The notes under the pieces were generated by a model. That model saw only the letters and a program-made list of their open reading frames with translations. It had not been told where the DNA came from and searched no databases. Position numbers and translations under genes: made by a program. Below are positions 1 through 47,357 of a stretch of DNA of 64,000 bases, piece by piece. Position 1 is the first letter of the stretch, and every line of letters starts with the position of its first letter. The DNA lies in assembly GCA_000431215.1 (NCBI GenBank), contig HF985561.1, positions 39,125 through 103,124 of the forward strand, written 5' to 3'. Origin of the DNA: Prevotella sp. CAG:1031. GTDB taxonomy: Bacteria > Bacteroidota > Bacteroidia > Bacteroidales > Muribaculaceae.

Positions 1-31
1 TAGATTTTGCCGTAAAATCTCTACTTTTGAT

Positions 32-1876
32 ATGCAATTTATAAATGTAGAGATGATCCGATTTTATCTGATGTTCATTCTGGCAACCGCGCTGGCCTCT
101 TGTTCATGCAACGGCGCGGGCCATCATACAGACCAATTACCTGTCGATCCGGTCGAGGCACTTCCTCCGTCAAAGGCCTACTCTGAATATCTTTCGCGCC
201 TGCGTTCTTCACCGGCCTCCGACGGCTATATCTACCACAAGGCATTCTATTCTGCGGTCGACGCCGACTCGCTCAGGCACTTTGCCTCTTTCCTTGATTC
301 CATGCTGTCTCTGAATGCGAGCAAAATCAACACAAATTATATAGTATCCCACCGGCTGCTCTGTTCCTATATGTTGTCGCTGCCCGATATTGACGCGCTC
401 AAAGACAGCGCCACCTCGATGAAGCCATCTTCCGACCCCACACAAGAGGAAGTGTCGTCACACGTGACGGCCAAGACCATGGTAGCGAGCGATCCGCGGC
501 GCGCGTTCGACATGCAGTTCAGGGCGATAGAGGCAATGCGCCACGGCGGCACTTACCGTCCGGCTGAAGTACTCGCCCAGGCTGCTCTGATATGCACCAA
601 TCTGGGCCGCTACCAGATGGCCATGGATTATATCAACGAGGCTACCGACACCCTGATTGCCCATGACTGGCCCAAGCGCGAGACTATATTTGTTCTGGGA
701 AACAAAGCAAATCTCTATCAGACGCTTGAGATGATCGACTCGGCGCTCAGCGTAAACAGCCACGCCCTCGAAGTGGCTGCCGACAGCCCCAGTATGCTCG
801 CCGATCTTCTCGGCTGGCGCGCCGAAACCTTTGCTCAGGCGGGCGAACGCGATTCAGCATATTTCTATATCGACTCGGCTCTACAGGTAGTATCGAGCCT
901 CGACCTCTCCTATAAGGCCATGTTTGCCCGACATCTGCGTGCACGCCGCGGAATACTGACCGTAGGCGACTCGTCGGCCTCGAACCGACAGATAAGCGAA
1001 GCCGTCAGTGACATTCGCGAGGCTCTGAACGACTGGCTTATACCCTGGGAAGAGCGGTTTGCCATAGCTTTGGGGGAGTTCCGGCTTGGCGACCACGAGG
1101 CCATCTCGCGCATGGAAGAGGCCCACGACAGCCTTGCGCGGCATATCGACCCGCGGGAGCAGCTCTGGATCAAACGGGCTCTCATCGACGCTTACACCGC
1201 CACCGGGCGCACCGCCGACGCCTCGCGCGAATATGCCGCCACCTTCAGGCTGATGGACACGATAGACACCCGCTATGCCCGCTACCTGTCTATAGCCAAC
1301 GACATACAGTATCATGCGCGCGAGCGGCTACAGGAAAACGTCAGGCTGCGCAGCCTCCACCAGCGCGACAGCGCTCGTGTCTCATGGCTCACAATAATCT
1401 GCGGTATGATATTGCTCCTGCTTGGCGGAGCGACATGGCTCATCATACACTCTCACCGCCGTCACCGCCGCAGCATCGAGGCCCATAACGGGGAAATCGA
1501 CACCCTGCGCCGCAACAACGGCGAACTGAGCGAGCACATCGAAGAGCTGAAAGCTGCCGGAAAGGAGCGCGAAGCCTCGGAAGAATGGGACAAACTGACA
1601 CCTCCGTCAATGACATCGGAAGACAATGCCCGTTTCAGACACGCGTTCAGAAACCACCTTCCCGACTTCCTTGACAGGCTCAACTCACGCTGTGAGGGCC
1701 TGACACCCGGCGACGAAACTCTCTGTATGCTTATCCGCATCGGCCGCGACACCGACGACATATCGGTTGCCCTCGGCATATCGCGTGCGAGCGTCAACTC
1801 CGCACGCTACCGCATCCGACGCAAAATGAACCTCGCCAAAGAAGAGTCGCTCGACGATCTGATCAACTCGCTCTAA
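32..1876 (+). CDS. TPR-repeat, single-pass membrane regulator with C-terminal LuxR-family HTH domain
   Basis: 614-aa ORF: N-terminal lipoprotein-like signal (LASCSCN), TPR-like helical repeats, one TM segment (WLTIICGMILLLLGGATWLII), coiled coil, C-terminal LuxR-type HTH (ETLCMLIRIGRDTDDISVALGISRASVNSARYRIRRKM). Confidence 0.6.
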   Translation: MQFINVEMIRFYLMFILATALASCSCNGAGHHTDQLPVDPVEALPPSKAYSEYLSRLRSSPASDGYIYHKAFYSAVDADSLRHFASFLDSMLSLNASKINTNYIVSHRLLCSYMLSLPDIDALKDSATSMKPSSDPTQEEVSSHVTAKTMVASDPRRAFDMQFRAIEAMRHGGTYRPAEVLAQAALICTNLGRYQMAMDYINEATDTLIAHDWPKRETIFVLGNKANLYQTLEMIDSALSVNSHALEVAADSPSMLADLLGWRAETFAQAGERDSAYFYIDSALQVVSSLDLSYKAMFARHLRARRGILTVGDSSASNRQISEAVSDIREALNDWLIPWEERFAIALGEFRLGDHEAISRMEEAHDSLARHIDPREQLWIKRALIDAYTATGRTADASREYAATFRLMDTIDTRYARYLSIANDIQYHARERLQENVRLRSLHQRDSARVSWLTIICGMILLLLGGATWLIIHSHRRHRRSIEAHNGEIDTLRRNNGELSEHIEELKAAGKEREASEEWDKLTPPSMTSEDNARFRHAFRNHLPDFLDRLNSRCEGLTPGDETLCMLIRIGRDTDDISVALGISRASVNSARYRIRRKMNLAKEESLDDLINSL

Positions 1877-1951
1877 TAGATTTTTGCGTCGATTTGATAG
1901 ATTATCGCACGCAATCATTGCAGAATCTAATGCAATCTATCTATTACAGCC

Positions 1952-1959
1952 TATATTTG
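1952..1959 (+). promoter_or_regulatory. candidate Bacteroidota sigma-A -7 element (TATATTTG) for the downstream cargo gene
   Basis: exact TAnnTTTG match about 55 nt upstream of the ATG at 2014; no good -33 TTG at canonical spacing. Confidence 0.3.
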
Positions 1960-2013
1960 CACATCATCGTTTTTCACCAACAATTCTCAAAACCTTTCCA
2001 AAAACATTACGTT

Positions 2014-5000
2014 ATGAAGAAGATGCTACTATGCCTTGTGACAGCTCTGGCGGTATCTCCGGCGATGAACGGACAGCTTCTGGCTCCATCGCGCCCCGGG
2101 AATGCCTCCACTGCCTACAACAGTCCTCTGGGCGTCACGGCCAAAACCAATCCGCCGGGCCACAAAGCCCGGGTCAGTGTCGACAGCCGCACGACAGCCG
2201 ACCCTTCCAGGATCATGCGCCGGGCGACGGACGCCGTTCCCGAACCGGGCCTTCAGCTATGGGGCGTTGTCGGCTACAGCGACCACAATGAGGAAGGCAC
2301 CATGAATGCCCACCGCGGATTCTATCTCATCAGCGGCGAAGGGCGGTTCACAAAACTCGACGCCATCGACATCCCGTATGCCCGCAGTTCAAATTATGGA
2401 ACAACGCTGATCGGACGCGACTACTATCTCTATTACACTCCCAAATTCGAAATATGGTCGACAAAATCATGGACAAACACAGGCACGATCGCCGTCGGCA
2501 AGGGCTTCAGCAGCTTTGCCACCGCCTACTGGGCTCCTGACGGACTCGTCTATGCCTCGAAAAAAGACGGCACGACCTTCAAGCTCGTCACCCAGAACTA
2601 TGAATTAGGCACCGAGACCGAGATTGCCACACTCGAGACTCTATGGTTCGCAATGGCTTTCGACAAAGACGGGACTCTCTGGGGACTCGACAGCTCATGC
2701 TCGATCTGGAAAGCAACTCGCGAGGGCACTGTAACGAAGGTTCACGACAAGGTCATTCCCTGCGAGATGCCCGACTACTTCAATTCGATAAGCTCGGCTG
2801 TCATCGACAACAGCAATAACACGATGATCGCCAGCATCCTCGGCAACAACACCGACCTTGAGGCAGCCGACGACAACGGTCTCACCGCAGGTCTCTACCG
2901 AATAGACCTCGCCACCGGCAAAGCCACACTGCTCGTCCACTGGACCTACAACGACGAGGTCCTCGGTCTGGCATTCCCACTCGGCACCACCCCCGGTATT
3001 CCTGCCGACATGGCCGCGCCCGAACTTGACTTCGGATCCGGCTCGCTGACCGGAAACGTGAGCTTCACCTTGCCCTCGGAAACGACCGACGGCTCGGCCG
3101 GAGATGGCGAGCTGACATATACGGTCTATGTCGCCGGCAAAAAAGCCGCCTCGGGCACCGGCGCCTGGGGTTCTTCGCAGAATGTCAGCGTAACCGCCCC
3201 CACCTCGGGCTATAACTATTTCTATGTCGAATGCTCGTCGACAGCCGGAAAAGGCATCGGTGCAGGAAAGTGGATGTTTACCGGCAAGGATGCTCCTGTG
3301 GCCCCGTCGAGCGTCAACGCCCAATTTATGGCAGGGGGCAGCATGGTCATGGTGACATGGAGCAAAGTGACCGAGTCGGTCAACGGCGGCTATATCAACC
3401 CCGACGAAGTCACCTACACTCTTCGCCGCTACACCGGCCCTGACGACACCGAAGGAGAAATCTGGAAAGAAAATATCTCTATCACAAGTGAGGCCCGTCC
3501 TATGGCCGAGCCTGATCAGATCACCGACTATACATGGGGTGTGACCGCTACCTACGACGGCAAGACATCGGCCGAGACACGTTCGAACGCGCTGCGCTCG
3601 GGATACGTCACTCCGCCCTGGACCTACGACTTCAGCAATGAGGCCGACATCTTCAACACCTTCACGCGAATAAACAACAACAGCGACACCGAGTCCTGGA
3701 AATACTATTCCAGCGGCTTCGGAGCAAACAAGAACGGAATGGTGTCGGTGCGCCTCAACAAATATCAGGCTACGGGAGAAGACTGGGACAAATGGCTCGT
3801 CTCGCCCAACGTCAAGCTGATACCGGGCAAAGCCTACCGTTTCAACGTCAAGGTCAAAGACCAGAGCAACAGCACCACGAGTCCCCACCGCGTCGAGGTG
3901 AAACTCGGCACCTCGTCGAGCGACATGGAAACCATGACACTTGACATCGTGCCTCAGCAGGATGTTACCGGAACGACATGGAAAACCCTCGAGGGTTATA
4001 TCCGCGTCGACACCGAGAACAAATATTTTGTCGGAATCCACGTCTGCACTCCCGCCAACAACGGCGTCGCCGTTTCACGCACCATCTACTTCGACGACTT
4101 CACGATAGGACTTCCGCAGGAAAGCAGCACTCCCGGCCAGGTAGCCGATTTCTCGGTGACACCGGCCGCCGACGGCTCTCATTCAGCTACAATCAGCTTC
4201 AAAGCTCCGTCGACCGACTTCGCCGGGCAGAATCCTCTCGCATCGCTTGACAAAGTCGACATCTACCGGGGCGAAGAACTGATAAAGACCTTCGAACACC
4301 CCTCGTTCGGGCAGCAGCTCGAATATATCGACAACACCCCCTCATTCGGCGAATACACCTACCGCGTCGTCGGCTCGAACGAGAACGGCGAAGGAAATGC
4401 CATGTCAGCCACGGTGTTCGTCGGTGTCAAGCTTGCCGCATCGCCTGAAAACGTCACTGTTTTCCAGACGTCAAATCCGGGCGAAGTGACCCTGTCATGG
4501 ACACCCCCGACAAAAGACATCGACGGCGGCCTTCTTCCCGCAGGAGGTGTAACAGGCTATTCGGTTGTCGAGCTTCTCGGAAGCGCACAGAACTGGCTTC
4601 AGGATGTCGACGCCTCAGTCAACAGCGTAACCTTCAGAGCGATCGAAGCCGATGCGGCTCAGGACTTCAAACGCTACGCGGTATTCCCGATAACCGAGAG
4701 CGGCACAGGCCGCGGCCGGGCCAGCGAAATCATCGTGGTCGGCAATCCCGACCAGCTTCCCTGGAGCGAATCGTTCAACGACGCGGAGTTCCACCACAAC
4801 TATATGATCGAAGGCACCGGCGGCAACTGGTTCCTGTTTAAAGACGAAGATCTGTCGGGCCTCTCCGACTGCGACGGCAACAACGGATTCATCGGCATGC
4901 AGGCCGAATTTATCGACGACTGGTCAGCTCTGGTTACAGGCCGCATATCGCTCGCCGGCACAACCAATCCCTATCTGACTTTCAATACCTACAATATCGT

Positions 5001-6600
5001 CAACTCACTCGGCACACCCGATCAGAACAAACTCGAAGTTTTCGTAGTTGCTCCGGGAGAAGAGGTCAAATGCGTCAAGACAATCGTCATGGCCGACGAC
5101 TGTGCCCAGCAGGGCTGGAACCGCTTCCTCGTCGACCTCTCGGAATGGGCAGGCCGCGACATACAGCTCAAATTCCAGGCCACCGCAGTAAATCTGCAAT
5201 ACACCTTCATCGACGCCGTCAAGGTCAATGAGGCCCGCGCCCACGACCTCACCGCCCTCTCAATCACAGCTCCCGAGAAAATCCGCGCCAACGAAGAATT
5301 CAAAGTGCGCGTCAAACTTGAGAACTCCGGTTCATCGACCGAGGGAGACTACTCGATCAACCTTATGCGAAACGGTCAGCCCGAGGTTACGGCTCAGGGG
5401 CGCACCGTCCATCCCACCGAAACAATGTGGGTCGACATTCCTGTCACAGTCGGCGTTATTAACGAAGGCCCCCAGGAATTCAAGGCCGAAATCGTGCTCG
5501 CCACCGATGAATATACCGACGACAATATGACCGGCACAGCTATCTCCAAGCTGGTGCTTCCGAAGCTTCCCGTAGTCAACAATCCCGTGGCTACGACTGA
5601 CGGCAACGGCTCAGTTGAGCTTCAATGGGAAAAGCCGACCATCGACCGCACTCCGCGACGCATCACCGACACAATGGAAGCCTACGAAGGCGGCACAAGC
5701 GAATGCGACGAATGGATAATCATCGACGGCGACGAGATGCCTGTGCTCGGTTTCGAAGACTTCAGGATGCCCGGAGTACCCTCCGGTTCAAAACGCTCAT
5801 GGTTTGTCATTGACGAGAGCGACCCGGCCTTCGGCGACATCGACTCGTTCTATGCCCATTCAGGCAACAAGAGCCTCGGATTCTTCGGCGTCGACGGCAC
5901 CTGTGCCGACTGGATCATCTCTCCGCAGCTCTCCGGTCAGGCCCAGCAGGTATCGTTGTGGCTGCGCGCCTATCATCCCTATGTCAGCGAAACAGTCGAA
6001 TTCCTCATCTCTGGTGAGAGCAACAACCCGTGGAACTTCACCCGAGTTGCCACCTACGATCTCATCGGAGCCGACTGGACCGAATATATCATCAATCTGC
6101 CTGCCGGAGCCCGCTACTTCGCCATCAAGGGCGCTACAGCCTCCGGGCTGCTCGGAATGCTCGACGACGTCTCGTATATCCCTCTGGGCAACAGCGCTGT
6201 CAACCATCGCGGCTACAATATCTACCGCGACGGCGTGCGGCTCAATGAGTCACCTCTCCGGAAGCCTGCATTCAGCCACGCTGTCAGCGGCGATGCCGTA
6301 GGCTCAGTCTACCGTCTTACCGCAGTGTATGACGAAGGTGAATCAATTCCTGTCGATGTAACCGTGACACAGGCAGCTGCTCTCGGCATGACATCAGCCC
6401 CGTCGGTAGCCATCGCCGGAGGCCGCGGAAAAATCACCGTCACCGGTGCCGAAGGCCTTGAGGTCATCATCGTGTCGCCCGACGGAAAGATTGTCTACAG
6501 CGGCATAGCCTCCGACAACAACCTTTCGGTATCGATCGCCAACCCGGGCATCTACATCGCCAAAGCCGGCACAACAGCCGCTAAAGTGACCGTCAGATAA
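2014..6600 (+). CDS. large secreted T9SS cargo protein (Fn3-like and choice-of-anchor-J-like domains, C-terminal Por sorting domain)
   Basis: Signal peptide MKKMLLCLVTALAVSPAMNGQ begins at 2014 (ORF-track 1894 start lies upstream of the signal peptide). About 1528 aa of Thr/Ser/Gly-rich beta-sandwich repeats. C-terminal roughly 80 aa ending ...PGIYIAKAGTTAAKVTVR matches the T9SS type-A sorting domain pattern. Confidence 0.65.
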   Translation: MKKMLLCLVTALAVSPAMNGQLLAPSRPGNASTAYNSPLGVTAKTNPPGHKARVSVDSRTTADPSRIMRRATDAVPEPGLQLWGVVGYSDHNEEGTMNAHRGFYLISGEGRFTKLDAIDIPYARSSNYGTTLIGRDYYLYYTPKFEIWSTKSWTNTGTIAVGKGFSSFATAYWAPDGLVYASKKDGTTFKLVTQNYELGTETEIATLETLWFAMAFDKDGTLWGLDSSCSIWKATREGTVTKVHDKVIPCEMPDYFNSISSAVIDNSNNTMIASILGNNTDLEAADDNGLTAGLYRIDLATGKATLLVHWTYNDEVLGLAFPLGTTPGIPADMAAPELDFGSGSLTGNVSFTLPSETTDGSAGDGELTYTVYVAGKKAASGTGAWGSSQNVSVTAPTSGYNYFYVECSSTAGKGIGAGKWMFTGKDAPVAPSSVNAQFMAGGSMVMVTWSKVTESVNGGYINPDEVTYTLRRYTGPDDTEGEIWKENISITSEARPMAEPDQITDYTWGVTATYDGKTSAETRSNALRSGYVTPPWTYDFSNEADIFNTFTRINNNSDTESWKYYSSGFGANKNGMVSVRLNKYQATGEDWDKWLVSPNVKLIPGKAYRFNVKVKDQSNSTTSPHRVEVKLGTSSSDMETMTLDIVPQQDVTGTTWKTLEGYIRVDTENKYFVGIHVCTPANNGVAVSRTIYFDDFTIGLPQESSTPGQVADFSVTPAADGSHSATISFKAPSTDFAGQNPLASLDKVDIYRGEELIKTFEHPSFGQQLEYIDNTPSFGEYTYRVVGSNENGEGNAMSATVFVGVKLAASPENVTVFQTSNPGEVTLSWTPPTKDIDGGLLPAGGVTGYSVVELLGSAQNWLQDVDASVNSVTFRAIEADAAQDFKRYAVFPITESGTGRGRASEIIVVGNPDQLPWSESFNDAEFHHNYMIEGTGGNWFLFKDEDLSGLSDCDGNNGFIGMQAEFIDDWSALVTGRISLAGTTNPYLTFNTYNIVNSLGTPDQNKLEVFVVAPGEEVKCVKTIVMADDCAQQGWNRFLVDLSEWAGRDIQLKFQATAVNLQYTFIDAVKVNEARAHDLTALSITAPEKIRANEEFKVRVKLENSGSSTEGDYSINLMRNGQPEVTAQGRTVHPTETMWVDIPVTVGVINEGPQEFKAEIVLATDEYTDDNMTGTAISKLVLPKLPVVNNPVATTDGNGSVELQWEKPTIDRTPRRITDTMEAYEGGTSECDEWIIIDGDEMPVLGFEDFRMPGVPSGSKRSWFVIDESDPAFGDIDSFYAHSGNKSLGFFGVDGTCADWIISPQLSGQAQQVSLWLRAYHPYVSETVEFLISGESNNPWNFTRVATYDLIGADWTEYIINLPAGARYFAIKGATASGLLGMLDDVSYIPLGNSAVNHRGYNIYRDGVRLNESPLRKPAFSHAVSGDAVGSVYRLTAVYDEGESIPVDVTVTQAAALGMTSAPSVAIAGGRGKITVTGAEGLEVIIVSPDGKIVYSGIASDNNLSVSIANPGIYIAKAGTTAAKVTVR

Positions 6601-6622
6601 CCGTTCCCTACCCGTATAATCG

Positions 6623-6671
6623 ACCGCGTTCCGCAAGCCTTGCAAAGGGCTATACGGAACGCGGTTTTCTA
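6623..6671 (+). terminator. rho-independent terminator after cargo gene
   Basis: 11-bp GC-rich stem accgcgttccg/cggaacgcggt followed by TTTTCT immediately after stop at 6600. Confidence 0.4.
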
Positions 6672-6687
6672 TGTCGTCACCCGGACG

Positions 6688-7746
6688 TCAGACTCCGAAA
6701 AGAAACATTAGCGGCTTTGAGTCGCGCATCTCGCCAGCAGCGTCGCCCGAATATATCGCGCCATTTGTCAGAGTGAGTTTCATGACCTTGTTGCCGGCAT
6801 TGAAATCAAGCTTTCTTAAATCAATCCAGAAAATATCGGGGCTTAGCGTAGACTCGAAATAATAAACCAGATTCTTCTGATCGGCGACAGTGCGCCAGCG
6901 GGTCGAGGCGATATTCGGCTGCGACGGGATTGAGATTCCCAGTGGCACCGACACATTGCGCATAACGCTGAAGACTCCGGCCACAGCCTGACGATAATCA
7001 GAGGTCCGGGGCAAAGCCTTGATATAGAACGAAGCTCTCACAAACCTGTCGGATGCCCTGTTGGTACCCGGCAGCATGACAAGACCGCCGATCTGCTCCC
7101 AGTAATCGTCGAGAGTCTGCTGCTTGTCGTAGGTCGGAGAATTGGTCATCACCTGACATTCACGTCCGTGATGGATCACGAGGTTGCCGTTGATATATTC
7201 AAAAATCGCACTGTTCCCCGTAGGGTCGGAGATAGAAAGATGCAATGTCGATTTCGCACCGTTGGGAAGATCGGGATCATCTATCCTGAACAGTTCCTTG
7301 CCAAGTTCCTCGACAGCCTCATCAACGGTGGCGAAATTATCGAGCACATATTGTGTCCATATACTCAGCCCCATGACAGGCCGGTTGTCGTCGGGTCGGT
7401 GGTAATCTGATTCCGCCAGAAAAAGCAGATTGGCCACAAGCCCCTTCTCGTTCATGCCGTCGCAGACCCCGATGTCATATCCGGCAGTCACCACACTGCC
7501 GTAGGCCGACGTCCATCTGACAGTATTGTCAGTTTCGGCTCCGCGACGGGACATACCCCTCGGAAAGAAATAGATGTTTGAATGCGGATCTTCTTTCCAG
7601 TCCATCGTGCGTCCCGTGACAATCATGTTGTCGGGGCCCAGATAAACGGCCCGTGTGCAGGCATCCGCCAATCCCGGCAAAGCTGCCGACCCTGCAATAA
7701 CACACGCCAAAGCGGCGATTCTCAAATACCCTGTTTTGTCAGTCAT
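6688..7746 (-). CDS. linear amide C-N hydrolase, choloylglycine hydrolase / penicillin V acylase (Ntn-hydrolase) family, secreted
   Basis: 352 aa; signal peptide then ...ADAC-TRAVYLGPDNMIVTGRTMDWKED (N-terminal nucleophile Cys context typical of CBAH/PVA family), NEKGL motif; intact length for family. Confidence 0.7.
   Translation of the reverse strand: MTDKTGYLRIAALACVIAGSAALPGLADACTRAVYLGPDNMIVTGRTMDWKEDPHSNIYFFPRGMSRRGAETDNTVRWTSAYGSVVTAGYDIGVCDGMNEKGLVANLLFLAESDYHRPDDNRPVMGLSIWTQYVLDNFATVDEAVEELGKELFRIDDPDLPNGAKSTLHLSISDPTGNSAIFEYINGNLVIHHGRECQVMTNSPTYDKQQTLDDYWEQIGGLVMLPGTNRASDRFVRASFYIKALPRTSDYRQAVAGVFSVMRNVSVPLGISIPSQPNIASTRWRTVADQKNLVYYFESTLSPDIFWIDLRKLDFNAGNKVMKLTLTNGAIYSGDAAGEMRDSKPLMFLFGV
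7286..7730. repeat. direct repeat copy A (445 bp; 5' part of Ntn-hydrolase gene), about 96% identical to 8729..9173
   Basis: base-by-base comparison: about 16 mismatches over 445 bp, constant offset 1443 bp. Confidence 0.8.
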
Positions 7747-8060
7747 ATCAGTATATAAATCAAATTCTTATTATCCACAAAAATTGCGACCTCAACACTT
7801 TTATAACGTCTGAAGAAAGAAACGGTTTAAATTTTAGCAGAAATTCCGACACGCGCGTTTTGTAATCGAAAGATAGGGCAAAATCTCAGATTATATTATA
7901 ACTTTGTCAAGTACAGCGTACATAGGTTCTTCTTTATGAATGATTTAAGCAGCCATAATATAGCAAGCAAACTTATTTACACGTTGTATTTCAACACTTT
8001 AACTACTTACTTAAGAACTTGAAACTTGAAATAAGTTTAAATCACTTTATTATATATTTT

Positions 8061-8732
8061 ATGGAATACTCAACTAAGCGTAAAGGAATAATTATTATAA
8101 GTTGTGTTGCAGCTACTGCTATTGTTGGCGTAACCGTACTTTGGGTTATAAATAAATACCGAAATGAAAAGTTTTTAGATGAAGGAGAGGCGATACTATT
8201 TGACGAATGTATGTATGCGTCCTATCCTTTAATCGCTAATTACTCTAATGTGCTATATGAACAGGCAAGTATATTTGAGTATAATGCACAACAAGCGAGT
8301 GCTATGAGTAGAGATTTAGATGAGTTCCAAGAAAACTTAATTAATCTAAACAGGCCATATATTAATAGTCGGCGAGATTGGTTTGCTGTATCTATGGAAT
8401 ATAGGATGTTTATAACATCAGTGCCATATAGTTATCTATGTATTAATCCTAAACTTCGCAAGAAAGAATCTGCCGCCTTTGGTAAGACAATATATTCAGA
8501 GAATACTCTAAAAAAATGGGACGAAATGGAACCAGACTCATTAATCCACGCTTGTCAAGAGATAAAAGTATGTCTCTCTGAAGCCCTAAGAGATTTGGAT
8601 AGATATAGAAAGCCTAACCAAGAAATTACTGCATGGCGAGAAATTTCCCCAAATCAAGGGCGAGATTTATATAAAAAGTATAATGAGCGGAAAAACTGGC
8701 CTTTTTCGTTTCTTAACAAAAAACAATACTGA
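8061..8732 (+). CDS. hypothetical membrane-anchored protein encoded in AT-rich island
   Basis: 223-aa ORF from ATG 8061 (MEYSTKRKGIIIISCVAATAIVGVTVLWVI = N-terminal TM helix). Local GC about 30% versus about 58% elsewhere. Stop codon TGA sits exactly at the island/repeat junction. No recognisable family. Confidence 0.4.
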   Translation: MEYSTKRKGIIIISCVAATAIVGVTVLWVINKYRNEKFLDEGEAILFDECMYASYPLIANYSNVLYEQASIFEYNAQQASAMSRDLDEFQENLINLNRPYINSRRDWFAVSMEYRMFITSVPYSYLCINPKLRKKESAAFGKTIYSENTLKKWDEMEPDSLIHACQEIKVCLSEALRDLDRYRKPNQEITAWREISPNQGRDLYKKYNERKNWPFSFLNKKQY

Positions 8733-9173
8733 ACAGCTCCTTGCCAAGTTCCTCGACAGCCTCATCGACGGTGGCGAAATTATCGAGCACATATTGTGTC
8801 CATATACTCAGCCCCATGACAGGCCGGTTGTCATCGGATCTGTGGTAATCTGATTCCGCCAGAAAAAGCAGATTGGCCACAAGCCCCTTCTCGTTCATGC
8901 CGTCGCAGACCCCGATGTCATATCCAGCAGTCACCACACTGCCGTAGGCCGACGTCCATCTGACCGTATTGTCGGTCTCGGCTCCGCGCCGGGCCATACC
9001 CCTCGGAAAGAAATAGATGTTTGAATGCGGATCTTCTTTCCAGTCCATCGTGCGTCCCGTGACAATCATGTTGTCGGGGCCCAGATAAACGGCCCGTGTG
9101 CAGGCATCCGACAATTCCGGCAAAACTGCCGACCCTGCAATAACACACGCCATAGCGGCGATTCTCAAATTCC
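8729..9173 (-). pseudogene. truncated 5' fragment (about 147 codons) of a second Ntn-hydrolase gene copy
   Basis: translation MACVIAGSAVLPELSDACTRAVYLGPDNMIVTGRTMDWKED...EELGKELF then runs into AT-rich DNA; 3' 60% of gene absent. Confidence 0.6.
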
Positions 9174-9223
9174 GCCCGATGAAATTTTCAGCTACCCGAC
9201 AATGATTTCTGATGAATAAGTTG

Positions 9224-9231
9224 TATTTTTG
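9224..9231 (+). promoter_or_regulatory. candidate -7 element TATTTTTG for lipoprotein gene
   Basis: TAnnTTTG match 23 nt upstream of ATG 9254. Confidence 0.3.
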
Positions 9232-9253
9232 CGCGATTAAATATTTATCACAG

Positions 9254-9658
9254 ATGTCAAGGAAATTCTTTATGACGGTGATTCTGGGCTGCGCGCTTGT
9301 TCTGGCGGCCTGCAATCATCTGAGCGATGAGGCAAAAGAGATTGCCGGCAATTACTATATCAGCGAGATTTCTCAGGACGAGCCTCTTATGGAGCTCAAC
9401 AAAAACGGCAAATGCAAGATCAGAGCCATCAATCCCGGGGTCCTGACAATGACTGTCGAGGGCAAATGGAATGTCGAGGGCAACAAGCTGATTCTTGATC
9501 TCGACCCGTCGACTCTGCTCACCGAAGGCGATTCGACCCTCGTCGGAAAAATTGTCGGCCATCAGGAGAAACCGATTGTTGACTTCAACGGAATCACACT
9601 GACGGTCAACGACCACGGCAGCAACTTCATGTATCATCGCCGGAATGATGTCAAATAA
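9254..9658 (+). CDS. hypothetical lipoprotein
   Basis: MSRKFFMTVILGCALVLAAC lipoprotein signal; 134 aa; no family recognised. Confidence 0.5.
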   Translation: MSRKFFMTVILGCALVLAACNHLSDEAKEIAGNYYISEISQDEPLMELNKNGKCKIRAINPGVLTMTVEGKWNVEGNKLILDLDPSTLLTEGDSTLVGKIVGHQEKPIVDFNGITLTVNDHGSNFMYHRRNDVK

Positions 9659-10010
9659 TCGTCAGGGAATGGACTGGCGCGATTCTCTGCGTCAGCTGCT
9701 CGACCCCGAGCAACAGTCCGACGTAGACGGAGCCGATGAGCCTGTCCAGGCTCCCGCTGAGCCCGTTTTCGGAGGCAGGAAGCTCGACATCGTGCTCGAC
9801 AAAAAAGGACGGCGAGGCAAACAGGCCACTATCATCGCAGGCTTCGACACCGACAACGACACCGAGGCTCTGGCTGTTGCCGCTCGCCTCAAACAATCTC
9901 TCGGCACAGGAGGCTCAGCCCGCGGCGGAGAGATTCTGATTCAGGGCGACCGCAGAAAAGATGTAGCGTCGCTGCTGACAGGGATGGGCTATAAAACGCG
10001 CATAATCTGA
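9645..10010 (+). CDS. SUI1/YciH-family translation initiation factor
   Basis: 121 aa; conserved core RKLDIVLDKKGRRGKQATIIAGF...GGSARGGEILIQGDRRKDV matches eIF1/SUI1 fold signature (KxGRKGK...IQLQGD). Confidence 0.65.
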   Translation: MMSNNRQGMDWRDSLRQLLDPEQQSDVDGADEPVQAPAEPVFGGRKLDIVLDKKGRRGKQATIIAGFDTDNDTEALAVAARLKQSLGTGGSARGGEILIQGDRRKDVASLLTGMGYKTRII

Positions 10011-10016
10011 CCGCGG

Positions 10017-13000
10017 ATGCTCGACGTCTACAAAGCTTCGGCTGGCTCGGGAAAAACCTACACTCTGGCCAAACGCTACATTCGGATGCTCCTTGGCTAT
10101 ACCGATTCCAACGGGCGCCGGCATCTTTACCGCCATGCTCCGATGGCCCATCGTTCTCTTCTGGCAATCACGTTCACCAACAAAGCCACTGAAGAGATGA
10201 AAAACCGAATTGTCCATGAATTGTCACTGCTGGCTCTCAATCCGGCGACAATGGCGGTTCTCGATCCGACGGAGCGAAGCCCCTACCTCAAAGAATTCAT
10301 GGCCAACTTCAACGCCTCGGAGGAAGAGATCGCTGCCGCGGCCTCTGAAGCACTGAAGCAGCTGCTCTACGATTACGGAATGTTCAGCGTTTCGACCATC
10401 GATTCTTTTTTCCAGACAATTCTCCGCGCGTTCGCCCGTGAGGCCGAACTCGACGGCAACTACGAGGTCGATCTCGACGAATCGACAGCTATCTTCAACG
10501 GCGTCAATGACCTTCTCAACAGCCTCGACCACAATACCGACGCGGAGACACGCCAGCTGATGGGATGGGTAACTGAATACGCTCTGACACGCTTCAACGA
10601 AAGGAAGGCATTCAATGTCTTCGATCGCGGTTCGAACACTTTTTCTGAATTCCTCTCGTTTTTCAAGACCCTGTTCAACGAAACTTTCGAAGAGAATATC
10701 GACAAGATGCTTCGATGGCTTTCTGACCCGGCGCGAATAAAACGATTCCGCGATGGCCTGACCTCCCGGGCCGACAACCTTATCGAAGTGGCCCGGTCAG
10801 CTTCGCAGAAGGCTCTTCGGACTGCGTCGGGACACGAACAATTAATCTCGGCCAACGCGTTCAAGCTTCTCAACTCATGGGCTGCGGCGACACCGTCGAA
10901 TTTGCCGGGACTTAAACTCAATCAGACCGAACAGAATCCGGCCAAAGCATTCAAAGGCAAAACAGAACCGCCGGCAATACTTGTAGCCGACGTCAGCGAA
11001 GCCTTCAGTGCGATCGTAGAGGCAAAAAAGATGTGGGAACTGCTCAACAAAATGAGTGTCAACGTCTATGCCATGGGGCTGATCGGCAACGTGACCGACT
11101 CTATCCACAAGATTCTCGAGCAGAACAACTCGCTCCTTCTCAAAGACACCAACTCGGTTCTCCACCGCATAATCGCCGACAACGATTCGCCTTTCATATT
11201 CGAGCGACTGAACCAGTATTACCGCCATTTCCTTATCGATGAGTTTCAGGACACCTCGCGCCTCCAATGGGAAAATCTAAGCAAGCTCATTGCGGAGAGC
11301 GTCAGTTTCGGCAACGAAAGCCTCGTCATCGGCGACGAAAAACAATGTATCTACCGTTTCCGTAACAGCGACCCTACCCTGCTGACAAACATTGCCGGTG
11401 ACTTTCCGGGGAACACTGCCATTACAGGCAACGACGTGGCAGGAAACACAAACTGGCGCAGTGCCGCCGACATTGTCAGATTCAACAATGTTCTTTTCAA
11501 GTCGATGGCCGAAGCCGCAGGCCTTGGAGATATCTATGCCAATGTCGTTCAGAGTGTGGCGCCGAAACGCCGTGAGCTTCAGGGATATGTGCGGATTTCC
11601 GATCTGAGGTTCACTCTCGGGACAAAAGCTACCTCCGAGGAATTCATAACCCGATCATTCGAGACAACCATCGGAGAAATCAGGCGCCAGCTGCGTGCCG
11701 GTTATCGCGGAGGTGAGATCGCAGTGCTTTTCCGCACAAACGACACAGCCCGCAGCTTTATCGAGACATTGCTGCCGGTGCTGTCGTCAGATCCCGATTT
11801 CAAGGGTGTAAAAATCTCCAGCGACGAAGCCCTCGCGCTGAAGAACTCTCCGGCGGTCAGAGTTGTGATGAGCATTCTGAAAACCATGACAGCGTCGGAT
11901 TTCGTCACCTCCGACCGGAATGTGTCGATGCGTGAGATCGCCATTCTGAACAAAGACTATGAAGAAGAATGTGCCGCCGGCCATCCTGTCAGCGAGGCCT
12001 TTGCCCGTGCTGTCGGAAATTATATGCGCCGCCGGCGTGAACGTGCCGAAAATCCCGAAACGGCAATCGATCCGGCGCCGGTGAATCTCGGCAAAGGAAA
12101 CTCGCTTCCGTCGGTTGTCAGAAACATTATAGCGTCGCTCTCCGAAGAGCAGCGCGTCAACCAGAACGCATATCTCACATCCCTTCTCGATCTGGCGATC
12201 GACCACAGCGAGAAAACCGGCGAAGGCGACATCGCGTCGTTTGTCAGCTGGTGGGAAAACTATGGGAACAGAACGGCAATGGTCGATACCGACGCCGACC
12301 CCGACGCAATCTGCGTCATGACTATCCATAAATCGAAGGGGCTTGAATTCCCCTGTGTCCATATTCCATATATCGACAAAAAGAACCGCGAACGACTCCG
12401 TTGGTTCAGGACTCCCCAGATCGAAGGCATCAACGATGACGACCGCCCCGAACTGGTGCCGCTTATCCCGTCGAAAGCAATGCTCGGCACCCCCTTTGAC
12501 GAACAATACCGCAAATATGACCGGGAGGTATTGTCGGACATGATCAACGTTCTCTACGTTGCTTTCACAAGAGCCGGACGCGAGCTATGCGTCAATATCG
12601 GAGCAAAAGGTGGGAACGGTACTTCGCTCGTCGAGAATGCGCTCGAACTCGGAGGCTTCGTCGCCGATGCCGCCACAGGAAATATCATAGCAGGAGCGCC
12701 GACCTCGCCGGTTCGCGAAAAAAGCAAGCGCAGCGTTCTCGAGCCCGTCGAGTCGTTTTTCATTGATCCGATAGGCGCAGCCACGGAAAATCGCGATATA
12801 TGGGCCGGCGTCACCCTCGACGACGACGAATCGCCTTCAGAGAGCTACACCGAGCGCTTTATCGCCCTTCTGCGAAACCGGCGCAGCGCTTCGGCAATCG
12901 GCAAGGAGATCAGACGGCTTGCCGCACAGCATTTCATCGACATCGCCACCGCCGACAGGCTCTCGGCCGATATTTCCTCGGCACTGGCTGACACTACCGT

Positions 13001-13280
13001 GGCCCGATGGTACGACTCAGACTCTTCTGTGACATGCCATGCGGCCGTCAACTTCGAGAATGGCGGTTCATGGCTCATCGACAGGCTTGTTGTTCTGCCG
13101 GGAGGCGACATCCATGCTGTTGAGATTGTCGACGATCCCGACCGCTATCCCGACATTCCGTCGAAACGCCAACGCCTCCACCGACTGACAGCAGCCGTGC
13201 GCTCGGCTCTCGACGCTACCGAAGCAAAGCGCGTCACGGCGTGGCTTTGGACTCCGGGCCATCCTCCTGTCCGGCTGTAG
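10017..13280 (+). CDS. UvrD/AddA-like superfamily-1 DNA helicase (large, about 1087 aa)
   Basis: Walker A at N-terminus ([12 protein letters not shown]), DEFQDTS motif, [10 protein letters not shown] motif VI-region; long C-terminal extension typical of Bacteroidota AddA-like proteins. Confidence 0.7.
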
Positions 13281-14722
13281 AGGCGGCTTTGTCGGCTCCG
13301 GCAAACAGCTTCGAAAGATAGCGTTCTAGAAGGCGTTCCATCAGTTCCCAGAAATTCGGCACGAAAAGCGTTCCGACAATGGCGTTGACCGCCATACCGA
13401 ACACGACCGCCGTTCCGAGCGACACACGGCTCGCTGCTCCGGCGCCGTTTGCGAACAACATCGGCATGACGCCGAACACGAAAGCGAGAGCGGTCATCAT
13501 GATCGGCCGGAAGCGGATCTTGCCGGCATCGAGCGCCGCCTGCCTTATGTCATTGCCCGCCGAACGGAAATCGCGGGCATATTCAACAATCAGAATAGCG
13601 TTTTTGGCTGCGAGACCCAACAGAAGGATAATACCGATCTGGGTGTAGATACTGATGCTTTGACTGAGGAATATGCAGCCCATGACCGTTCCAAGAAGTG
13701 CCGTCGGCATTGCCATAATCACGGCCACCGGATCTGTCCAGTTCTCATATTGTGCGGCCAGCACAAGCAGAGTCATCACTATGGCGAAGATCAGCACAAG
13801 CGAGATCGTTGTTCCGCTCTGCGTCTCCTGATATGCTTCGCCGGTCCAGGCGTAGTTATAGTTTTCGCCGGCGACCTCTCTGACAAGATTCTCCATCTCT
13901 TCGATTCCTTCGCTCGAACTGACGCCGTGGGCCGGAATTGAGCGTCGCCCCGAAACCTTTCTCAAACCAGCGGTAGATGAAGAATTTAGCCTGTTTCTTC
14001 TTGCGCAGAAACAGGGCACACATCGCCGGCGTGAAAGTCAGGGCGTTGAATCCCGAGAAAGCTGTCGACACAGCGATTGTGAGCGCGAACTGTTTATAGA
14101 GCTGACCGGTTATGCCGCTGATGAAAGCCGTAGGGATGAAAACCGACAGCAACACGAGCACCTCGCCAATGACCGGTCTCTGAAGTTCCTGCATAGCCTT
14201 CTCGGCGCCCTGACGCGGCGTCAGTTTCCCCTCATCGACCAGTCGGGAACAGTCTTCGACAACCACTATCGCGTCGTCGACCACTATCGCGATGGCGAGA
14301 ACAAGACCGAAAAGCGTCAGGGTGTTCAGAGTGAATCCCAACAGCTTCATGACGGCGAAAGTCGCAATCAACGAAACCGGAATAGTTATCATCGGTATGA
14401 TTACTGCGCGCCAGTTCTGGAGGAACAGCAGAATGACGATCATGACAATCAGCGTTGTCTCGACAAAGGTGACCAGTACCTCGTCGATAGAAGCAGTGAC
14501 AAACTCCGTAGTGTCGAGCACGACATCATATTTGACTCCGGGCGGAAAATTCTGAGCGAGTTGCTCGAGCCGGTCGCGCACCGCATTGGCAACACTGAGG
14601 GCATTGGCTCCGGGCAACTGATAGATTCCCATGAGCGCACATTCATGGCCCGACACTTTCGAGACAGTGCCGTACTGCTGGCTGCCGAGATCTATCCGCG
14701 CAACATCCTTAACATATTTCAA
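13234..14722 (-). pseudogene. RND (AcrB/HAE1-family) efflux permease remnant: N-terminally truncated, internal deletion and frame change
   Basis: ORF 13856..14722 matches AcrB residues roughly 250-510 (VKDVARIDLG..., TM2-6, ...RWFEKGFG). ORF 13234..14019 in another frame matches AcrB C-terminal TM bundle ([12 protein letters not shown]...[11 protein letters not shown]...). Porter domain (about 340 codons) and first about 250 codons missing. No MFP/OMF partner genes. Confidence 0.6.
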
Positions 14723-39034: not shown

Positions 39035-40326
39035 CTTACGGTAAGCTCAACGATATTGTCAATATCTTCGGTGAGTTCGGGAAGATGGAGTGTGACACTA
39101 TCTTTCGAACGAGAGAATTTGACCTTTGTGCCGTCGGCGAACATCTTCGCGTGCCAGACGCTGAAACCCTCGGTAGGAATCACAATATCTTTCGATTCGG
39201 GATTGAGGACATGGATAAACAGGCGTTCCCCTTTGCGGGTCGCGGTTCCCCAGGGCTGTTCGGCAAACGGAGAGCCTTCGGTTCCGTAGATCGTCTCGCC
39301 GTGGGCTCTCATCCATTCTCCTATTTCGCGAAGACGTTCGAGCGCCATTGCCGGGAGCTCGCCATTGGGCTGCGGGCCTATGTTCAGCAGCAGGTTGGCA
39401 CCTTTTCCGGCCGTCTTAACCAGATAGTGGACAAGTGTGCGCGTATCTTTATAATCTGTATCCTCGATACGGAAGCCCCACATTCCGTTCATGGTGTCAC
39501 AAGTTTCGAGAGGCAGCTGGCTTATAGCCTGTCCCGAAAGTCCGGCCGTGTTCTCGCCCGGCATATCGCGTTCGAAAATCTGTATGTCCTCCCCTTCGAA
39601 AGGCGCCTGATGATGGTTGTTACCTACCAGACATCCCGGCTGAAGGCTGTGGATAAGAGCGTATTGCTGAGGCAACTGCCAGTTGAAAGGAACTGAATCC
39701 TGATCGTGGTCCCACCATCCGTCGAACCATATTGCGCGAATCGGGCCATAGCCTGTCAGCAGTTCGCTGAGCTGACGGTTCATGAAAGCATAGTAGTGAG
39801 GCCAGTCGCTCTTCAGGCTGTCTTTGCCGGTCGTGCGGCCGGTTCGCCCTGCCGGATAGTCATCGCGCCCCCAGTCAATATGAGAATAATAGAGATGGAG
39901 CTTAAGGTCGTTTTTCTGACAGGCCTCCGACAGTTCTTTCAGCACATCGCGCTTGAACGGCGTGGCGTCGACGATATTGTAGTCCGACTCCTTGGTGCCG
40001 AACATCGAGAACCCGTCGTGATGGCGCGTCGTGAAGCAGATATATCGTGCGCCTGAATCCTTGATAGCTTGTGCCCAGGCTTCGGCATCGAAATCGGCCG
40101 GATAGAAAGCGCGGGCCGTCTTGGCATATTCGCTCTGCAGAGGTCCGTAATTCAGATACCACTCACCACGGGCAAACATGCTGTAAATGCCCCAGTGGAT
40201 GAATATGCCGAAGCGGTCAGCGGCAAACTCTTTGCGTGATTCCAAAACCTGAGGTGACGCTACATACTCGGCCGAAGCCGGCAGAAGCATCAAAGCCGTC
40301 AATACTGATAGGATTAATCTTTTCAT
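39031..40326 (-). CDS. alpha-L-fucosidase (GH29), secreted
   Basis: signal peptide; FGIFIHWGIYS, HHDGFSMF, WFDGWWD motifs of GH29. Confidence 0.75.
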   Translation of the reverse strand: MKRLILSVLTALMLLPASAEYVASPQVLESRKEFAADRFGIFIHWGIYSMFARGEWYLNYGPLQSEYAKTARAFYPADFDAEAWAQAIKDSGARYICFTTRHHDGFSMFGTKESDYNIVDATPFKRDVLKELSEACQKNDLKLHLYYSHIDWGRDDYPAGRTGRTTGKDSLKSDWPHYYAFMNRQLSELLTGYGPIRAIWFDGWWDHDQDSVPFNWQLPQQYALIHSLQPGCLVGNNHHQAPFEGEDIQIFERDMPGENTAGLSGQAISQLPLETCDTMNGMWGFRIEDTDYKDTRTLVHYLVKTAGKGANLLLNIGPQPNGELPAMALERLREIGEWMRAHGETIYGTEGSPFAEQPWGTATRKGERLFIHVLNPESKDIVIPTEGFSVWHAKMFADGTKVKFSRSKDSVTLHLPELTEDIDNIVELTVR

Positions 40327-46209: not shown

Positions 46210-46296
46210 CTGTCCCTATCAGTTGTGAATTTATCCCATAAAGACTATTATAAGGATAACGTATCTGCACATAGCTGAGATACAAAATAAAAGTGT

Positions 46297-46304
46297 TAAC
46301 TTTG
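46297..46304 (+). promoter_or_regulatory. candidate -7 element TAACTTTG for YhcG-like gene (leaderless)
   Basis: exact TAnnTTTG ending 3 nt before ATG 46308. Confidence 0.35.
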
Positions 46305-46307
46305 TAT

Positions 46308-47357
46308 ATGGAAACAGTCGTTCGTATTCATAGCGAATCAGAGTATAATGAAATACTGAGACAGGCCGTCGCAGTTATTGAAGCCTCACGAGACAATGCC
46401 GCCCGTGCTATTGTCAGGACATCCAATGAAATGCACTGGCGGATCGGTCAGCTGCTATATGAGCGCAAACTCGACAGCGCACACGGAGCAGGGGTTGTGA
46501 CAAGACTATCATCAGACCTCAAAGCTTCCTATCCAAAAATGGGAATGTCGGTGAGCAACTTATGGAATATGAAACGTTTGTATGCGCGGTTTCATAAATC
46601 AGGCCCAAAACTACAACAAGCTGTTGTAGTTTTGCCTTGGGGACATATCAATCATCTCATTACTAAATTTGGAGATGATGACAATGCTATTCTTTACTAC
46701 GCCGAGAAAACTGTTCAGAAAGGCTGGAGTCGGGCATTATTGGTCAATGCTATAAAGCTGGAGATGCACAAGCATCAGCCGGAAGCCAACATGTCAAATA
46801 ATTTTGCCGTCGCTCTTCCGAAGACTCAGGCAGCATACGCCAACGAGATTTTCAAGGATTCTTATTGCATGGGATTTCTTGGCGTGACAGAGCCACTCTT
46901 TGAACTGGAGCTTGAGCGGAGATTGGTTGAGAAAGTAAAACATTTTCTCCTTGAACTCGGTCAGGGATTTACATACATCGGCAATCAGCACGTTCTGTCT
47001 TACAATGGTAAGGATTATAAGGTGGATATGCTTTTCTTTCACCGCGGACTTAGGTCGCTCGTTGCCGTTGATTTGAAAATATCCGAATTCATGCCCGAAT
47101 ATGTCAGCAAGATGAATCTCTATCTCTCGTTGCTTGACAGGCTTGAAAGAGGGAAAGACGAAAATCCCTCAATCGGTATAATCCTGTGCGCTGAAAAAGA
47201 CAACGTGGAAGTAGAGCTGGCGCTTGAAGGGTTTACAAAACCTATAGGCGTCGCCGAATACAAACTTATCGTCCCTCAAAAAGAGCTGAAACAGCTAATC
47301 TCCGACGAAATAAAGACCTTCAACAAAGAAGTCGCCGATATATCAGCACAACAATGA
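46308..47357 (+). CDS. YhcG-like DUF1016 protein with C-terminal PD-(D/E)xK nuclease fold
   Basis: 350 aa; N-terminal DUF1016 region; C-terminal ...GKDYKVDMLFFH...LVAVDLKISEF... (D, ELK-like restriction-endonuclease-fold motif); gene GC about 45%, flanks about 38%. Confidence 0.55.
   Translation: METVVRIHSESEYNEILRQAVAVIEASRDNAARAIVRTSNEMHWRIGQLLYERKLDSAHGAGVVTRLSSDLKASYPKMGMSVSNLWNMKRLYARFHKSGPKLQQAVVVLPWGHINHLITKFGDDDNAILYYAEKTVQKGWSRALLVNAIKLEMHKHQPEANMSNNFAVALPKTQAAYANEIFKDSYCMGFLGVTEPLFELELERRLVEKVKHFLLELGQGFTYIGNQHVLSYNGKDYKVDMLFFHRGLRSLVAVDLKISEFMPEYVSKMNLYLSLLDRLERGKDENPSIGIILCAEKDNVEVELALEGFTKPIGVAEYKLIVPQKELKQLISDEIKTFNKEVADISAQQ

Follow-up and report, generated by a model that had tools for sequence, protein, structure and literature searches.

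The 64,000-nucleotide stretch of Prevotella sp. CAG:1031 DNA analysed here (contig HF985561.1 of assembly GCA_000431215.1, forward-strand positions 39,125 to 103,124) is referred to below as the window and is numbered from its first letter. It carries a complete gene of the choloylglycine hydrolase family, a partial second copy of the same gene and, between the two, a short AT-rich insert with a single open reading frame (ORF). The origin of this arrangement, and the structural alleles that occupy the same place in other strains of this human-gut species, are the subject of the present analysis. The intact gene (6688..7746, minus strand) encodes an N-terminal nucleophile (Ntn) hydrolase of 352 amino acids that matches PF02275 (CBAH) with an E value of 5.8e-50. 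Its product begins with a Sec-type leader, MTDKTGYLRIAALACVIAGSAALPGLADA, followed by Cys30, the residue to which position 1 of the PF02275 profile aligns. The initial annotation had placed this gene in the bile-salt-hydrolase family. The product does belong to the broader PF02275 family, but it scores 100.8 bits against the NCBIfam model bile_salt_hydro (NF038245), for which the cut-off is 350, and is therefore not a bile-salt-hydrolase equivalog in the strict sense. The closest hydrolases in species-representative genomes belong to Muribaculaceae-type metagenome-assembled genomes and do not exceed 87% identity over the full length; a partial match (L066) reaches 91%.

The repeat and its insert

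Pairwise alignment of the region delivers one direct repeat of 448 bp (7283-7730 and 8726-9173), with 17 substitutions, no indel and 96.2% identity. Both boundaries are sharp, the two copies start 1,443 bp apart, and a repeat search detected no other repeat longer than 23 nt within 5500-11000. The spacer at 7731-8728 (998 bp) has a GC content of 32.9%, against 54.7% for the window. The diverged repeat and AT-rich spacer of the initial annotation are therefore real, but the repeat measures 448 bp instead of 445 bp and starts at 7283 and 8726 instead of 7286 and 8729. It is also not the beginning of the gene, as had been proposed: copy 1 (7283..7730, minus strand) spans codons 7-155 of the intact hydrolase, and the first 16 nt (MTDKTG) lie outside the repeat. 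Copy 2 (8726..9173, minus strand) is a hydrolase fragment that spans the same codons 7-155 and is devoid of the start-codon region, of the promoter and of the 3' part. The ORF of 146 amino acids that has been called as a gene in this fragment (8713..9153, minus strand; PF02275 match, E 6.4e-17) is a relic, and the name 'preprotein translocase SecA subunit', under which both the hydrolase (CCX43676.1) and the relic (CCX43678.1) are filed at the NCBI, is a mis-annotation.

The exact intact hydrolase protein is present on 15 contigs, and the exact ORF of the insert is listed in 150 index blocks. In 69 of these 150 blocks the ORF is found exclusively on contigs shorter than 2 kb, which indicates that assemblers often break at the repeats and is the one observation that would favour an artificial joining of two strain alleles during assembly. 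Against such an artefact, the same layout is seen in contigs of 50-200 kb obtained from many samples with several assemblers, all 24 contigs that were read share the same gene order, which makes at least 24 independent metagenome assemblies in agreement, and both repeat copies carry strain-specific variants. For these reasons the layout is not an assembly artefact, an explanation whose probability is close to nil.

No transposase, integrase or terminal inverted repeat was found in the insert, the only ORF of which has no transposase match in Pfam, NCBIfam or PHROG, and no integrase or recombinase gene is present between the neighbouring surface-protein gene and the UvrD-like helicase gene. Two further readings of the repeats were discarded. 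A diversity-generating retroelement is ruled out since the substitutions between the repeats are of all types and mostly synonymous, not adenine-specific, and no reverse transcriptase is encoded in their neighbourhood. An invertible promoter is ruled out since the repeats are direct.

The AT-rich cargo itself (7849..8725, plus strand, 33% GC) is composed of a 212-bp leader and the ORF, and has no homology to the other alleles of the locus. It is near-invariant, with 0-1 substitutions per 877 bp in most strains and one 3-bp indel in L115. The ORF (8061..8732, plus strand) encodes 223 amino acids, predicted to form an N-terminal transmembrane helix running into an all-helical bundle; the AlphaFold2 model has a predicted local distance difference test score (pLDDT) of 93.3. 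With an intact conserved C-terminus, RKNWPF(S/T)FLNK, the protein is essentially full length, and the TGA stop lies inside hydrolase-derived sequence, three codons beyond the usual end of the family. This family is small: 4 clusters were retrieved by a word search in 5.8 billion proteins, and 37 clusters by a profile search among 1.84 billion representatives. The 223-residue protein has no match in Pfam, NCBIfam or PADLOC, weak PHROG matches (E above 0.05), no sequence match in the PDB better than E = 0.011, no significant fold match there (best E 0.11), and no match in plasmid or phage collections. A homologue with 73% identity is encoded on an IMG/VR contig between the genes for a ClpP-type prohead protease and ArdA, and another with 72% identity (P0002) adjoins ArdA on the metagenome contigs L082 and L083. 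A more distant homologue (30% identity) is located between hsdS and hsdR of a type I restriction-modification operon, and yet another lies near an integrase arm-binding domain. A role of the 223-residue protein in phage-host or restriction conflict would be a reasonable guess.

Structural alleles and the reciprocal single-copy form

Alleles of the locus in Prevotella sp. CAG:1031 were gathered by anchoring on the neighbouring lipoprotein gene; L-numbers designate contigs. The island-bearing allele (a) of the window recurs in L081, L098-L104, L110, L115, L123, L126-L135 and L140. In allele (b), found in L097, L106, L107, L109, L111, L114 and L116, the hydrolase is reduced to scraps: window positions 1-6802 are followed by 47 bp matching 7349-7395 and then by 9069 onward, and the deletion joints carry microhomology. 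Allele (c) is hydrolase-free, with 167 unrelated bp in place of 6673-9220 (L105, L108, L117-L120), and allele (d) has lost both the surface-protein gene and the hydrolase, 7801-7838 being joined to 9169 onward (L112, L121). Allele (e), represented by L122, combines an intact hydrolase with another cargo: the native upstream region extends to 7848 and is followed by 2,094 bp of cargo and then by 9221 onward. Finally, allele (f) (L137-L139) is island-free and contains a single hydrolase gene of 340 codons located 118 bp from the lipoprotein gene. No hydrolase lies beside these neighbours in any of 80 loci from other species.

The alternative cargo of L122 (L122:3856-5949, 38% GC) comprises a DndB/DpdB-like gene of 343 amino acids and an unannotated gene of 254 amino acids, which together may form a two-gene defence module. 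Its first nucleotide occupies the position at which the window cargo also begins, and the flanking sequences are GGAATTCCGG and GGAAT-CCGG. In the 167-bp segment that replaces window 6673-9220 (L105:6810-6976), the last 49 bp resemble the right end of the L122 cargo region. A 9-bp motif, CCCGACAAT / ATTGTCGGG, has opposite orientations in the two kinds of spacer, a hint of a small inversion.

The single-copy allele (f) was compared base by base with both repeats. At all 13 diagnostic sites between 7285 and 7606, L137-L139 have the copy-1 base; at 7636, 7668, 7673 and 7710 they have the copy-2 base, and then continue into an identical junction, CTCAAATTCCGCCCG. The sole switch is confined to a 29-bp crossover interval, 7607..7635 (9050-9078 in copy 2). 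The initial annotation had proposed a Campbell-type single crossover of a circular molecule, and had suggested looking for strains that lack the island and have only one hydrolase gene. Such strains exist, and the Campbell-type reading gains its support from the fact that their allele, which switches once, between 7606 and 7636, is the exact reciprocal recombinant of both repeats. On these comparisons, a single homologous crossover between the single-copy allele and a 1,443-bp circle would give the duplicated allele; the converse, a pop-out, holds equally well. Such a circle would contain the left 324 bp of copy 2, the right 95 bp of copy 1, the MTDKTG codons, the upstream region 7747-7848 and the cargo 7849-8725. 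Each repeat then appears as a hybrid of donor and recipient, and not as a 'resident versus incoming' pair: in copy 1, 7283-7606 (minus strand) is of recipient type and agrees with the single-copy allele, and 7636-7730 (minus strand) differs in type and is assigned to the donor. In recipient-type sequence, 5 of 1014 bases distinguish the window from L137, against about 4% between donor and recipient types. Allele (b) is a decayed form of allele (f), because its scraps match the latter, including a G at 7682 where every copy 2 has A.

Comparison of the two copies also bears on the alternative that the initial annotation had offered, a partial tandem duplication followed by a foreign insertion, considered here as an in-situ duplication of the 5' part of the gene with later decay of one copy. 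In the mature part of the protein, the ratio of non-synonymous to synonymous substitution rates (dN/dS) between the copies is 0.08-0.10, to be compared with 0.10 between L122 and copy 1, which are two functional alleles; the deficit of non-synonymous changes has P = 1.6e-5 under neutrality. At 8 of the 19 sites separating the copies, copy 2 has the base of L122. A mosaic test of L122 against the two copies was suggestive, not significant (Fisher, about 0.07). Copy 2 behaves as an allele and not as a decayed duplicate. An in-situ duplication, disfavoured by the mainly synonymous differences and by the sites shared with the independent L122, would moreover have carried along codons 1-6 and the upstream region, which are missing from copy 2. 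In its favour, the copies of L140 are near-identical over 7390-7606 and have a private change in common. The sister strain L081 is without this identity, however, which makes gene conversion the best explanation of it. A tandem duplication is consequently held to be very improbable.

Further exchanges between the copies were detected. At 7606 and 7636 of copy 1, T and C are found in all other strains, but the window has the bases of copy 2, a private gene-conversion patch. Conversely, copy 2 of L099, L100, L103 and L123 has the copy-1 bases at 7390, 7395 and 7398, a transfer opposite to that found in P0046 and P0053, which runs from copy 2 to copy 1. In L140, copy 1 is of copy-2 type over at least 217 bp (7390-7606), and the private change, N to Y, is present in both copies. 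These patches show that gene conversion between the repeats is ongoing.

The segment that separates copy 1 from the cargo (7731..7848, minus strand) holds the first codons of the hydrolase (MTDKTG) and 102 bp of upstream sequence. Neither copy 2 nor the single-copy allele has this segment, which ends in an 8-bp core, AAATTCCG, at 7841-7848. The intact gene of L122 starts with MTNKT, is preceded by the same 102-bp upstream region (7747-7848), and its homology to the window stops at 7848. A 38-bp remnant of this region, 7801-7838, is kept in L112 and L121, where it is fused directly to 9169 onward. The N-termini of orthologues from other species, MNKTGRYRI and MVNKAGIYRL, resemble the MTDKTGYLRI of the window hydrolase. 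On the strength of L122, of the L112/L121 remnants and of the orthologue N-termini, 7731-7848 is the ancestral 5' end of the hydrolase gene, and the foreign part is limited to 7849-8725. A new N-terminus in the sense of an evolutionary novelty is ruled out by the orthologues and L122. What the initial annotation had called a new N-terminus and a new upstream region is indeed different from the single-copy partner, with its MACVIAG start close to the lipoprotein gene, but MTDKTG and 7747-7848 are ancestral. Its statement that the old upstream region now fronts a dead 5' fragment is correct relative to this partner allele; the rewired expression that it supposed is a conjecture. The 340-residue allele is a 5'-truncated derivative that would have arisen through a deletion of about 114 bp, with a 4-7-bp microhomology joint between AAATACC (codons 6-7) and AAATTCCG, and the recombination event would have restored MTDKTG and the upstream region to this truncated allele.

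On the other side of the repeats, the spacer and promoter region of the lipoprotein gene occupy 9175..9229 (plus strand). The right edge of the strain-variable region is at 9222-9229, where a motif scan showed that TATTTTTG fits TAnnTTTG, and all alleles are collinear again from 9221/9222. TAnnTTTG, which is taken here to be the Bacteroidetes -7 promoter element, was not found in the native 102-bp upstream region of the hydrolase. Matches are present in the cargo leader at 7899 (plus strand) and 7975 (minus strand), the latter facing the hydrolase, 229 bp upstream of its start.

Direction of the event and the core sequence

The locus is probably a natural Campbell-type merodiploid. According to this proposal, the ancestral gene would have possessed the long leader (MTDKTG...) and its own upstream region, abutting the lipoprotein spacer at AAATTCCG. 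One lineage would have suffered the deletion of about 114 bp from AAATACC (codons 6-7) to AAATTCCG, losing the start codon and the upstream region to yield the 340-residue allele with its internal ATG start. A second lineage, with a hydrolase about 4% different, would have received an AT-rich phage-type gene directly after AAATTCCG. A 1,443-bp piece of this putative donor, extending from hydrolase codons 155 to 1 through the native upstream region and the cargo gene, would have closed into a circle, which RecA-type homologous recombination then joined to the truncated allele through one crossover between 7607 and 7635. The window shows the arrangement that such a history would produce: a full-length gene that has regained its leader and upstream region, next to it the cargo gene, and beyond that a dead 5' fragment that has been displaced. 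Each of these steps is ordinary, and the integration of a re-circularised donor has a precedent in E. coli: in conjugation with one-sided homology, most integrants are single crossovers of a re-circularised molecule, which leave duplications of 109-950 bp (PMC3240628).

Integration into the truncated allele, as opposed to excision, is the likely direction, on account of these ordinary steps, of the diversity of the truncated-allele flanks and remnants, and of the near-invariance of the cargo. The flanks of the truncated allele and of its decayed form (L097, L106, L107, L109, L111, L114, L116) differ by 0-5% and their remnants by about 2%, and the cargo has 0-1 differences per 877 bp even where the hydrolase 3' parts of the island strains differ by 1.5-3.6%. 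Several points nevertheless weigh against the proposed history. Integration and excision are exact inverses, and therefore the sequence relation alone gives no direction. The predicted donor allele, in which the cargo would follow AAATTCCG without copy 2 after it, was not recovered: each of the 24 contigs that were read for the exact ORF has the window layout. Frequent gene conversion and strongly mosaic flanks blur the histories of the alleles. The joint that would have closed the circle lies at most 9 bp from the natural end of the ORF, which calls for luck or selection. Lastly, the 8-bp core around cargo and copy 2 could be read as a target-site duplication.

Some candidates were rejected in the course of this reasoning. 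Had a circle entered an intact long-leader gene by simple Campbell integration, codons 1-6 and the upstream region would be found next to the distal copy, an arrangement that is not observed. The 47-bp and 105-bp remnants of the decayed alleles do not serve as polarity markers, both models predicting the same pattern and 7390 being polymorphic through gene conversion. Flank phylogeny was not retained for polarity either, the flanks being too mosaic.

The core 8-mer occurs seven times in the 64 kb, counting both strands, and two of these occurrences are at the insert junctions. The second one, AAATTCCG at 9167..9174, marks the junction between copy 2 and the lipoprotein-proximal spacer, a junction that recurs at the core in the single-copy and decayed alleles. 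This insertion point is a hot spot that a minimum of four further rearrangements share as an end. Independent breakpoints at or within 1 bp of AAATTCCG include the left edges of the window and L122 cargos (the same nucleotide), the joint of the deletion of about 114 bp and an insertion in L139 and L140. The latter concerns one single-copy and one island-bearing strain, and begins 1 bp from the core. In these contigs (L139:1-126 and L140:1-53), the stretch just before AAATTCCG (after ...GCGGCGATTCTC) passes into unrelated DNA, soon after which each contig ends. The inserted sequence has no match in viral contigs; it may be a repeated or mobile element at the core.

A history of the reverse polarity can be built on this core. 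A composite segment, made of the cargo and a foreign hydrolase fragment, would have been inserted at AAATTCCG in an intact gene with duplication of the core, and the 340-residue and decayed alleles would be later pop-outs; the insertion could have used a site-specific recombinase acting in trans or microhomology joining. Such a history accounts for the perfect 8-bp direct repeat that flanks cargo and copy 2, for the different cargo of L122, which also has core-like flanks and the same start nucleotide, and for the L139/L140 insertion next to the core. Pop-out between 448-bp repeats is also expected to be frequent and yields exactly the single-copy allele that is observed. The right-hand copy of AAATTCCG is, however, equally explicable as a deletion joint already present in the single-copy allele, and the composite element would have to be one, itself unexplained, whose hydrolase end happens to stop at a core-like sequence. 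All single-copy and decayed alleles have one switch pattern and the G at 7682, pointing to one origin and not to recurrent pop-outs. Truncated alleles show greater diversity and a wider distribution than the near-invariant cargo, and no recombinase gene lies in or beside the insert. The reverse polarity is consequently regarded as possible but doubtful.

If AAATTCC(G) were a recombination site, the two cargo insertions, the 114-bp deletion and the L139/L140 insertion would all be expected to end at it or within 1 bp, as they do. This consideration enters a more speculative scenario, viewed as unlikely, in which the 1.44-kb unit would be an integrase-free 'homing cassette': a phage-derived gene would have captured a piece of the neighbouring host gene as a homology arm and would spread from strain to strain as a small circle or as linear DNA. 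Separately, AAATTCC(G) would be the site of an enzyme encoded elsewhere, and the cargo protein would be an unrecognised defence or anti-defence factor.

The joint at 8725/8726 brings in another alternative, homology-facilitated illegitimate recombination of a linear donor. The left side would then be a homologous crossover, the right side an illegitimate joint between the cargo end and codon 155 of the resident truncated gene, and copy 2 would belong wholly to the recipient. The 8725/8726 joint is indeed illegitimate, with a microhomology of at most 3-4 bp, and this mechanism has been invoked for displacement arrays that retain relics (PMC5361080). Classic events of this type, however, delete or replace recipient DNA and do not duplicate it. 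Furthermore, the left 324 bp of copy 2 differ from the truncated allele at 12 sites, its right part matches that allele, and an extra recombination would be needed to account for L137-L139. This route is considered quite improbable. Under the preferred integration of a circle into the truncated allele, the locus is a well-documented natural instance of a known mechanism and not a new process.

Comparison with known systems and other features of the window

The closest parallel is provided by Campbell integrants, as obtained with suicide vectors or from re-circularised conjugated DNA (PMC3240628). As in these, direct repeats flank the insert, the repeats are hybrids with one switch and a reciprocal single-copy allele exists; the window insert is likewise without transposase, integrase or inverted repeats, and its 448-bp repeat falls inside the experimental range of 109-950 bp. 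Unlike the laboratory integrants, the window event is natural and took place in a gut commensal without any plasmid backbone. The circle would also be particular in its small size, only 1.44 kb, and in its composition, chromosomal DNA of a related strain plus one phage-type gene.

Displacement arrays, described for the effector-immunity arrays of the type VI secretion system in Vibrio cholerae and for the orphan 3' ends of Rhs and contact-dependent inhibition (CDI) genes (PMC5361080), are a second term of comparison. There too, homology to a resident gene guides the incoming DNA and the displaced relic of a diverged allele is kept beside the new module. In the window, by contrast, it is the 5' end that is duplicated, the full gene is intact, recipient DNA is duplicated instead of being replaced, and a single homologous crossover is enough to relate the locus to the single-copy allele.

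The locus also resembles strain-variable hot spots and defence islands, with at least six structural alleles at one intergenic site, fixed boundaries and alternative cargos that are defence-like (the DndB/DpdB-like gene and its companion in L122, the 223-residue gene in the window). It departs from typical ones in being very small (0.2-2.5 kb), with no adjacent integrase or tRNA, and in that several rearrangements end at one 8-bp sequence. Accessory genes such as prrC and the rlo genes are embedded in type I restriction-modification operons, and the location of the 30%-identical cargo homologue between hsdS and hsdR recalls this situation. The cargo gene of the window, unlike them, is solitary, and its product has no similarity in sequence or fold to PrrC or to any PADLOC model.

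The interest of the locus lies in what is probably a gene gain by homologous single crossover, for which the natural record is unusually complete: a single human-gut species has the integrant, its single-copy partner, decayed forms and other cargos side by side. It suggests that a small chromosome fragment of a related strain can ferry a foreign gene, and that a gene truncated at its 5' end can be repaired when a single crossover gives back the leader and the upstream region; it also shows that repeats formed in this way go on exchanging sequence. Attention is further drawn to a small protein family, so far uncharacterised, with links to loci for anti-restriction and restriction-modification, and to a very compact hot spot for cargo insertion.

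Other features of the window deserve mention. The large surface-protein gene (1894-6600, plus strand), which encodes Ig-like, CBM_4_9 and DUF6383 domains, itself varies between strains: L100, L116, L120 and L138 have it as two separate ORFs, L114 has a shorter version, and L112 and L121 have lost it. At about 13234-14722 (minus strand), most strains have two short, overlapping ACR_tran/MMPL ORFs of 288 and 220 amino acids in place of the single L122 gene, which is at least 1,060 amino acids long; the lineage of the window seems to have a truncated or frameshifted transporter of the RND type. Another patch of low GC content (about 43%), at 46293-47357 (plus strand), encodes a protein of the YhcG/DUF1016 PDDEXK-nuclease family and is probably another acquired accessory gene. 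Its neighbours, assessed by eye from their translations, are tyrosyl-tRNA synthetase-like and RfbA-like genes.

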